64,000 nt of DNA from an uncultured Spirochaetales bacterium (GCA_964630905.1 CAZVWR010000004.1:6775-70774), one strand, 5' to 3'. Positions 58,807-59,946 are shown, counted from the first letter of the stretch. Notes: generated by a model not told the origin, from the letters alone. Numbers and translations: made by a program.

Positions 58807-59946
58807 ATGAAAAAGCTTCTTGTGATCTTAATTGCGGCAATGTTCGTTTCTGTTTCATGCGGCGATGATAAAAAAGAAACTGGTGACACTGGAAATACCG
58901 GCAATACCGGAGACACTGGAAATACCGGAAATACCGGAAATACAGGTGATACTGGCGACACCGGTAACACCGGTAATACTGGAAACACCGGTAATACTGG
59001 AAATACCGGCAACACAGGTGACACTGGCGACACAGGTAATACTGGTAATACTGGAAACACAGGAGATACAGGTAATACCGGAAATACTGTTGCTGAATGT
59101 GAAGGCGTAGAAAAGAGATTTGGGGAAACTCCTTGTGGAAAAAATGAAAAGGGAGTTTTAAGGCAGGATTGTGTCGAAGGAAGGTGGACAGATACGGAAA
59201 CATGTCTTGATTTTAACGGAACATATGCACAAAAGATGTGGTTTACAGCTAAATCTAAAGTTGCTACTATTGATATGGCAGAGGCGTGGACAAGAACATA
59301 TTTTGTTGTTGAACAGGAGCAGGAAAAAGACAAGCTTCATATAACGGCAAAGATTTGCAATATCAAAATTGACAATAGTGCTAGCGGAACATTGAAATTA
59401 AATATGCTTCAAAGTTTTGCAGATGCATTGCCTCTTCTTCCAAAAGAATCTGGACTCATTATGAAAGATGATGGAACCATTGAATTTACACAGGAAACTT
59501 CATGGGAAATAAGATCAATCGATCCTGCATGTTATGGGGATAAGCCCGGTGACTATGAGCTTCCGACAAAAGAGACCGATGCCTGTGTTCAGGATTGGGA
59601 TAAAGATACTATCCCCGGACTCAAAGTGGTTGCCACTGGTCTAATGAATGGAGATGTCCATATTGTTGAAAAGTCTTCTTCTGAATTTAAAAATGGCTGG
59701 TTTGCTGCTGATGGACAGACCGCTGGCGGAGATATTTATTGGACAGATGTGCAGGAAGTTGTAAAAACAACAAATAGTCTTCTAAAATCCGGTGCACAAA
59801 ACAGCTGGAAAGAAGTTTCAGACAAATTTACAGGAAGTGCCAATTTCTTTGAACAGTTTAAGATTCCCGAAGGTAGCGATTGCAATTATGTTGTAACTAA
59901 TGCCAATACCATATTCAACCCTGACCCAATTAACATCGACGACTAA
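58807..59946 (+). CDS. Lipoprotein with a 23-copy (G-N/D-T) array, paralog of 5788..7401.
   Basis: [24 protein letters not shown], then GDTGNT repeats. The ribosome-binding site TAGGAGG sits 9 nt after the fadL-like stop. Confidence 0.75.
58882..59088 (+). repeat. Coding tandem repeat of 23 copies of 9 bp, encoding (GDT/GNT)23.
   Basis: Counted directly; the wobble positions are variable. Confidence 0.9.

Follow-up and report, generated by a model that had tools for sequence, protein, structure and literature searches.

The DNA analysed here is a stretch of 64,000 nucleotides (nt) from an uncultured Spirochaetales bacterium (GCA_964630905.1 CAZVWR010000004.1:6775-70774; hereafter the window). 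In it, a gene for a FadL-family outer-membrane channel (57196-58797, + strand; 533 amino acids (aa)) is followed after 9 nt by a gene for a lipoprotein (58807-59946, + strand; 379 aa) that consists of a lipid anchor, a triplet-repeat leash and a predicted beta-barrel. The two genes form a conserved pair and are very probably functionally coupled. We propose, as a moderately probable mechanism taken as a whole, that the lipoprotein serves the FadL channel as a leashed binder of hydrophobic ligands. No description of such a pairing between a leashed lipoprotein and FadL, or of the barrel family, was found in the literature.

A conserved channel-lipoprotein gene pair

A search with the 285-aa C-terminal part of the lipoprotein yielded 66 protein clusters, all from metagenome-assembled genomes (MAGs) recorded as uncultured 'bacterium'. 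With one genome taken per species, relatives (40-87% identity) are encoded at 27 loci, in MAGs that come from rumen, digesters and sediments and are of UBP6 type or carry the label Sumerlaeota or Spirochaetales. A FadL-like gene (37-79% identity) lies directly upstream on the same strand in all 26 genome loci with upstream sequence and, when metagenome contigs are added, in 30 of the 31 informative loci, the exception being L005 (discussed below). The lipoprotein start follows the FadL stop by 9 nt in most loci and by 6-27 nt in a few, and the two genes overlap by 4 nt in the far clade. The metzincin gene on the upstream flank and the FeoB gene on the downstream flank are retained only in the closest relatives, the former being found before the pair in L007, L009, L010 and L022; elsewhere the pair alone is conserved.

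The pairing extends further within the FadL subfamily: all six of the distant members examined (27-35% identity), one of them from Lujinxingia vulgaris, have an adjacent homologous lipoprotein gene whose product matches the hidden Markov model (HMM) of the barrel family at E = 1e-17 to 2e-79. The lipoprotein gene is located downstream of the channel gene in four of these loci and upstream in two; the upstream order is seen in L156 and L158. In addition, three metagenome loci (L046; L074, at 5173-6681 on the + strand and 6693-7751 on the - strand; and L104) contain convergent, tail-to-tail pairs 3-77 nt apart, as measured between stop-to-stop bounds of the open reading frames (ORFs). Because adjacency has survived changes in both gene order and orientation, it points to a functional link rather than just an inherited operon. 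The first-pass annotation of this DNA had suggested a partnership with the outer-membrane channel and had named conserved pairing with FadL-like genes as one check; the 30 of 31 informative loci and the six distant loci bear this suggestion out.

The gene that precedes the pair (51496-56997) encodes an 1833-aa metzincin lipoprotein. It is closed by an intrinsic terminator (57022-57043, + strand) with a 9-bp GC-rich stem and a T-run (dG -16.9 kcal/mol, z = -3.19; 0 of 200 shuffles fold as well), which bounds the two-gene unit upstream. A sigma-70-like promoter candidate (57130-57158, + strand; TTGACA-17 nt-TACATT with an upstream TG, 10/12 consensus) is located 38 nt before the FadL-like start; promoter-like sites are no more frequent in the region than in shuffles, and this one is a consensus match only. 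The stop codon of the FadL-like gene (TAG, 58795-58797) is overlapped by the Shine-Dalgarno sequence of the lipoprotein gene (AGGAGG, 58796-58801, + strand), which ends 5 nt before the ATG at 58807, so that the 9-nt spacing and strong ribosome-binding site reported in the first-pass annotation are both present. No significant hairpin was found between the two genes. A candidate attenuating hairpin in the 3' end of the FadL-like gene (58769-58784) was rejected, being no better than shuffles (z = 0.64). The lipoprotein gene is followed by T-runs only, with no stable hairpin, and the next downstream gene, at 60059, encodes a LexA-like helix-turn-helix/S24 repressor. Since a terminator and a promoter-like site lie upstream and no convincing separator lies between the genes, co-transcription, which the annotation had also put forward, is the simplest reading of the sequence, and the conservation of the pair supports it. 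The two ORFs are also in the same frame (starts 1611 nt apart), with a single TAG and just three sense codons between them, so that a ribosome reading through the stop would fuse channel and lipoprotein; the shared frame is probably a coincidence.

The assignment of the upstream product to the FadL family depends on profile and model evidence. Its Pfam match to PF03349 (Toluene_X/FadL; residues 196-464) is marginal (E = 1.9e-7, 30.4 bits vs the cut-off of 29.7), and an NCBIfam FadL match covers residues 381-451. Although a PDB sequence search with the single sequence gave no match, a profile of 62 homologues matched FadL proteins only (E. coli FadL at 2e-10, the P. aeruginosa homologue at 2e-6), with no match to BamG or PorV. 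The AlphaFold2 (AF2) model is confident (predicted local distance difference test (pLDDT) 88, predicted template-modelling score (pTM) 0.85) and shows a 14-stranded beta-barrel with an N-terminal hatch plug. The hatch carries the NPA motif YFNPALL at aa 48-54, in which Pro51 is invariant and Tyr48, Phe49, Asn50, Ala52, Leu53 and Leu54 are each at least 90% conserved in the 62 homologues. By this model, the product is a real FadL-fold channel. Known FadL channels also have a kink in strand S3 with a lateral opening and transport hydrophobic substrates. The window protein exceeds E. coli FadL by about 100 residues, and its long loops at aa 158-192 and 462-514 are conserved in a manner specific to the subfamily. 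Conservation is highest at aa 409-425 (0.84), aa 158-192 (0.65) and parts of aa 462-514. When the topology of the connections is assigned by strand parity from the secondary-structure string, those of 2-3 residues would be periplasmic turns and the long ones extracellular.

The FadL fold also occurs in proteins that are not transporters, and the pair could accordingly be an accessory of outer-membrane biogenesis or secretion, a BamG-BamH-like or PorV-like unit that holds the lipoprotein or a cargo and has no part in transport. Such non-transport FadL-fold proteins bind surface lipoproteins, and the paralogous pair BamG2-BamH2 (Bt1785-Bt1786) is encoded in a putative operon (PMC12578637). The restriction of the PDB profile matches to transport FadLs makes this explanation quite improbable, as does the lack of any Pfam match to the C-terminal domain families of type 9 secretion, by which a role of the lipoprotein as type 9 cargo was likewise rejected. 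The conserved N-terminal extension of about 10 residues that marks BamG also seems absent, as judged by distance and not by an alignment: the interval from the likely end of the signal peptide to the NPA motif is about the same as in E. coli FadL.

Anchor, leash and predicted barrel of the lipoprotein

The signal peptide of the lipoprotein (58807-58860, + strand) has an MKK n-region, a hydrophobic h-region and the lipobox V-S-V-S-C, of which S-V-S-C18 agrees with the loose lipobox pattern; Cys18, the predicted lipidated residue, is followed by GDDKKE. The 35 FadL-paired homologues examined are all lipoproteins with long leashes, and in each of them a K-rich n-region and a hydrophobic h-region lead up to a Cys that corresponds to Cys18. 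In the window protein, the leash (58882-59088, + strand; aa 26-94) comprises 23 G-(N/D)-T triplets, 16 GNT and 7 GDT, with no interruption, and is most likely a disordered spacer. At the DNA level it is an imperfect array with a 9-nt period (58879-59087; 70-83% matches) and a 72-nt higher-order unit, and is therefore not a product of fresh slippage.

Among orthologues, the leash is kept in length and free in sequence. Uninterrupted GNT/GDT triplets are found in the window protein, L006, L007 and L009; in L022, L005 and P0007 (64-75% identity) the leash is a degenerate GDT/SDT/DDD sequence in which the Gly periodicity is broken; the rumen clade has NPTDEPT-type repeats, and the far clade has D/E/T-rich acidic sequence. 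The distance from Met to the conserved part is 87-129 aa across these proteins, which corresponds to a leash of about 67-109 residues. This variation bears on the possibility that the 23 G-X-Y triplets form a collagen-like triple helix, which would trimerise the protein and hold three barrels off the membrane on a rigid stalk of about 20 nm. Gly does occupy every third position through 69 residues, the triplets are also uninterrupted in orthologues L006, L007 and L009, and the Pfam Collagen model (PF01391) scores 49.8 bits vs a cut-off of 27.2, with partial NCBIfam matches to Scl/Lcl. The leash contains no Pro, however, and no trimerisation domain was recognised in the Pfam and NCBIfam scans. 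Charge pairs of the type that stabilises bacterial collagens are likewise missing. Moreover, leashes with broken Gly periodicity, or PT-rich or acidic leashes of equal length in distant orthologues, imply that a triple helix is not needed for function. A collagen stalk is thus improbable, and the Pfam 'Collagen' match simply reflects G-X-Y periodicity.

The same variation decides against an earlier view of the repeat as a stalk module shuffled onto different effector domains. That view arose from a second triplet lipoprotein gene of the window (5788-7401, + strand), which indeed shares the SCGDD context (MVSCGDD) and the triplet array (25 GNT/GDT triplets at 5923-6147, as against the (GDT/GNT)23 of the gene at 58807) and continues into a Cys-rich C-terminal part. 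As also reported, the C-terminal domains of the two proteins are unrelated (BLASTP E = 0.21; 285 aa in the 58807 product, given as about 280). The description of that domain as Cys-poor is valid relative to the other protein, which has 53 Cys after the repeats, and not in absolute terms, as the 58807 product has 8, four of them within a module of about 40 aa. The orthologues, however, carry unrelated low-complexity leashes, and acidic stretches follow the lipid-bearing Cys in other lipoproteins of the window; GNT/GDT is therefore not a portable module. To judge from the sequences, it is a lineage-specific flavour of disordered tether, and the feature that the triplet genes have in common is a genome-specific way of writing low-complexity spacers. 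A recent duplication of the N-terminal region between the genes at 5788 and 58807 was considered and rejected, since the two genes show no more than loose similarity in the DNA for the signal peptide, and the higher-order period of the array is 45 nt in the former vs 72 nt in the latter.

A third array (3190-3333, - strand) encodes 16 GNS/GDS/GNT triplets near the C terminus of an S8 subtilase (3037-5568, - strand; 843 aa) that also has Cys-rich C-terminal modules and a DUF4215 repeat; the triplet spacer can thus be internal and is not restricted to the position after a lipobox. A six-frame scan of the window found no triplet runs beyond these three.

Between leash and barrel lies a small Cys-rich module of about 40 aa (59089-59211, + strand; Cys98, Cys110, Cys122, Cys133), identified by profile and predicted to form three short strands. 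The module (profile positions 2-43 of alignment A2; pattern C-x-G-x-R-x-G-x-T-x-C-G...G-x-L-x-Q-x-C-x-x-G-x-W) has no Pfam model. It recurs in 6-17 tandem copies in large unrelated proteins of 560-2185 aa (P0195, P0199, P0200, P0202, P0222), some of which have Lamin-tail (LTD) or HpiC1/carbohydrate-binding module (CBM)-like domains, and it is missing from the far clade of orthologues. Rumen-clade loci (L012, L014, L018, L021) and proteins P0031 and P0045 have an extra short Cys-rich insert (PCAENPCAEDETC...GYxCxC) between leash and module, which by eye may be EGF-like.

The conserved C-terminal domain (59212-59946, + strand; about 245 aa) belongs to an unnamed family. Searches of Pfam, NCBIfam and PDB sequences with the lipoprotein gave nothing beyond the repeat-driven 'Collagen' matches. 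The AF2 model of the Cys-rich module together with this domain (pLDDT 88.2, pTM 0.85) is nearly all beta, with several strands of 15-19 residues, and the domain is confidently predicted to be a closed beta-barrel resembling small 8-stranded outer-membrane proteins (OMPs), avidins and lipocalins; a Foldseek search with the barrel model gave no match at E <= 0.001. The domain contains the motifs GT(Y/W)AQ, a Ca-loop-like DWDxD(G/T)xPG, VEKSSS and WTDxQ and the invariant Cys pair Cys184 and Cys359. The 58807 product aligns over the full 285 aa with 12 homologues (41-76% identity), and the motifs that hold family-wide (alignments A2 and A3) are G-x-W/Y-A, D-x-D-x-D-G-x-P-G, (Q/E)(R/K)S, W-x-(D/E)-Q and the invariant Cys pair. 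A membrane-embedded 8-stranded barrel was considered and rejected: charged residues occupy both faces of the strands, and the protein ends in NIDD with no C-terminal aromatic signature. The two-sided charges and the NIDD end suggest a soluble barrel.

The barrel family is far wider than the FadL-paired branch. A profile search of 1.84 billion cluster representatives gave 685 matches at E <= 0.001, 307 of them at <= 1e-10; most are 250-340 aa long, and none of the members scanned has a Pfam or NCBIfam name. Of 118 representatives that are full-length and begin with M, 54 show a lipobox followed by a low-complexity leash (median 49 aa), and 64 have an ordinary signal peptide, right after which the barrel begins. 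Across the wide family, the alignment columns that never vary are G, C, P, D, D, G, G, G and C; no conserved Ser, His or other nucleophile is among them, which makes an enzymatic role unlikely. This bears on the idea that the lipoprotein is a surface enzyme that liberates the substrate of the channel, as the lysophospholipase VolA does for Vibrio FadL. The idea has a precedent in that VolA is a surface lipoprotein co-transcribed with a FadL homologue (PMC3656444). It is extremely unlikely for the present protein, given the invariant columns, the predicted fold (a small closed barrel) and the lack of any match to a hydrolase family in Pfam or NCBIfam.

A degenerate DNA pattern for DxDxDGxPGxT proved specific for the family, being found at 120 metagenome loci of which 114 carry it; about 8 loci of the 120-locus set have a FadL-subfamily neighbour. 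BLAST clustering, an iterative HMM search for FadL-like neighbours and Pfam annotation of 108 neighbouring ORFs found no one common neighbour of the wide family. Those recurring among the 108 ORFs include glycosyltransferases, SDR (three), lycopene cyclase (three), RPE65 carotenoid oxygenase (two), Rieske oxygenase (two) and Toluene_X (three). The carotenoid and Rieske neighbours of unpaired members weakly suggest that hydrophobic compounds of isoprenoid or aromatic type are handled by the family. The barrel family is thus general, and one branch of it is the fixed partner of one FadL subfamily. Genes for amine oxidase or phytoene-desaturase-like proteins are also seen beside unpaired members, at 2 of the metagenome loci L036-L155. 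Two or three barrel-family genes stand in tandem in L106 (308-4178), L133 (2461-4741) and L138 (3331-5282), the last with an intact copy beside a seemingly frameshifted second copy.

Proposed carrier function and membrane side

In the proposed mechanism, the genes at 57196-58797 and 58807-59946 would act as one transcription unit that supplies a FadL-type channel together with a dedicated partner. The partner would have three parts: the lipid anchor at the N terminus, a flexible leash about 75 residues long, and a globular closed beta-barrel stabilised by the conserved disulfide and, probably, by a Ca-binding loop of the DxDxDG type. The barrel would bind a hydrophobic molecule of low solubility, for example a long-chain fatty acid or a lipid of similar kind, and either pass it to the FadL channel or take it from the channel. 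Some 75 disordered residues would give the barrel a range of some 10-20 nm from the membrane while keeping it beside its channel. Consistent with a carrier, the invariant residues of the wide family (Gly, Pro, Cys and Asp) are not a catalytic set, leash length is kept while leash sequence is not, and unpaired family members occur near genes of hydrophobic-compound metabolism.

Several observations weigh against this proposal or parts of it. A FadL neighbour is present in just 2 of the 29 barrel-family loci with at least 1.7 kb on both sides; as most members do not stand beside FadL, the barrel family would have a more general role. For the close homologue at L005 (10001-11146; P0009, 64% identity), the 10 kb to each side contain no FadL-like gene, and the gene next to it upstream is cytidylyltransferase-like; a second gene copy, a rearrangement or an artefact in the assembly of the Logan contig could account for this. 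The best-conserved loop of the channel (aa 409-425), which also resembles a motif in E. coli FadL, lies within the general FadL model matches and is probably not subfamily-specific, and the loop topology derives from strand parity, not coordinates. With regard to a position at the surface, about half of the family (the 64 of 118 representatives above) has an ordinary signal peptide and no lipid anchor, and the known lipoprotein lipocalins of diderms are periplasmic (PMC7521688).

As to the membrane side, we lean towards a surface-exposed lipoprotein, and rate a periplasm-facing carrier at somewhat less than an even chance. Acidic leashes occur in other lipoproteins of the window, among them a PNGase F-like enzyme (1357-3036), the 1833-aa metzincin and leucine-rich repeat (LRR) proteins, and the Cys-rich module has relatives of extracellular type. 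The channel would offer only 2-3-residue turns on the periplasmic side, and its long loops carry the subfamily-specific conserved motifs. By analogy, both precedents, VolA-FadL (PMC3656444) and BamG-BamH (PMC12578637), operate at the cell surface. In the opposite arrangement, the leashed barrel would be a shuttle that carries the hydrophobic substrate released by FadL across the periplasm. It is a topological variant of the carrier mechanism, and its probability is counted within that of the mechanism as a whole. The representatives with ordinary signal peptides, which are likely soluble periplasmic proteins, fit such a shuttle, as does TP0751, which has the same combination of disordered region and 8-stranded barrel and has been argued to be a periplasmic small-molecule binder (PMC7521688); a leash of about 75 aa could span the periplasm. 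The shuttle is nevertheless rather doubtful. The short periplasmic turns assigned to the channel would leave little for docking, the Cys-rich module is shared with giant multi-repeat proteins whose LTD or CBM-like domains are typical of the cell exterior, and the window lipoproteins with similar acidic leashes are enzymes expected to act outside the cell. The conserved disulfide is compatible with either compartment.

The path of hydrophobic molecules through the surface layers to FadL, and from the outer to the inner membrane, is only partly understood, and to our knowledge no accessory carrier has been described for classical FadL systems. A distinct FadL subfamily paired with a leashed barrel lipoprotein is a concrete candidate for such an accessory. 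We suggest tentatively that a FadL subfamily found across several phyla needs a dedicated leashed carrier of an unnamed fold family, and that the wider family represents a new class of hydrophobic-molecule carriers in bacteria, with at least 685 clusters, about half of them soluble. A real carrier on the periplasmic side would be the first protein known to ferry FadL substrates between the outer membrane and the inner one, and a real carrier facing outward would be the first lipoprotein to capture substrate non-enzymatically for a channel that is passive and independent of TonB. The theme of the barrel-lipoprotein complex would then extend beyond Bacteroidota and TonB-dependent transporters, to uncultured lineages (UBP6-type MAGs of rumen, digesters and sediments) and Bradymonadia-like bacteria. 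The barrel family delineated by the analysis is large and is not covered by any Pfam or NCBIfam model.

Some further features of the window concern exported proteins or coding repeats. The PNGase F-like lipoprotein (1357-3036, - strand; FAC-STSNKD...) has an acidic D/E/T-rich leash followed by PNGase F N- and C-terminal domains (E = 8.6e-21). Finding such a glycoprotein-deglycosylating enzyme in an anaerobe that is uncultured is a hint of lipoprotein enzymes exposed at the surface. Directly before the FadL pair, a gene at 50211-51479 (+ strand) encodes a 422-aa protein with a signal peptide, a PE/KE-rich low-complexity stretch, the OMP-like end GYSYSF and no Pfam match. It stands 16 nt upstream of the gene of the 1833-aa metzincin lipoprotein (HEMGHVVGLRHNF; 51496-56997, + strand), and the two look like a second barrel-plus-lipoprotein pair. 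Another coding repeat with a 9-nt period, (VEK/VEN)n in about 10 copies (49382-49469), lies in the ORF at 49209-50042 (+ strand), directly after an FtsX-like permease gene; its 277-aa product has an N-terminal membrane anchor and a weak DUF3299 match.

Relation to known channel-lipoprotein systems

Several outer-membrane systems combine a barrel with a lipoprotein. In Vibrio cholerae, the lipoprotein VolA (VCA0863) is co-transcribed with a FadL homologue (VCA0862) and has been proposed to feed the channel at the surface (PMC3656444). The present pair is similar in that a lipoprotein is encoded with a FadL homologue. It differs in gene order, as the lipoprotein gene is downstream of the channel gene and that of VolA upstream, and in the lipoprotein itself: VolA is a lysophospholipase, whereas the 58807 product has no hydrolase signature, a predicted closed barrel and a long low-complexity leash. 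In the BamG-BamH complex of Bacteroidota, a 14-stranded barrel with the FadL fold binds a surface lipoprotein through its extracellular loops (PMC12578637). BamH, however, is a crescent-shaped scaffold whose N terminus is wedged into BamG, an architecture that the 58807 lipoprotein does not have.

The first-pass annotation had compared the lipoprotein to partners of the SusD or BtuG type. The comparison stands as a functional analogy at most, in the general logic of an outer-membrane barrel with a partner lipoprotein that is encoded side by side with it and captures its substrate. It does not extend to fold or to channel: the lipoprotein has no Pfam match to SusD or BtuG, and its neighbour is not a TonB-dependent transporter. 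SusC and BtuB are 22-stranded TonB-dependent transporters, in contrast to the 14-stranded passive channel of the window, and SusD (an alpha-helical TPR protein) and BtuG (a beta-propeller) are lids on short linkers, in contrast to a small predicted barrel on a leash of about 75 residues. In predicted build, the lipoprotein resembles lipoprotein lipocalins such as E. coli Blc and Treponema pallidum TP0751, which combine a lipid anchor, a disordered region and an 8-stranded barrel and have been proposed to bind small molecules (PMC7521688). Calycins in general (lipocalins, avidins and FABPs) are antiparallel closed barrels of 8 strands, or 10 in FABPs, that have a central ligand pocket and a G-x-W motif on the first strand. 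The channel, for its part, is distinguished from E. coli FadL, the P. aeruginosa FadL homologue and TodX by its additional 100 or so residues, its own conserved loops and its obligate pairing with a lipoprotein gene. The unit as proposed works like SusCD, BtuBG, VolA-FadL and BamGH, and is a member of none of them.

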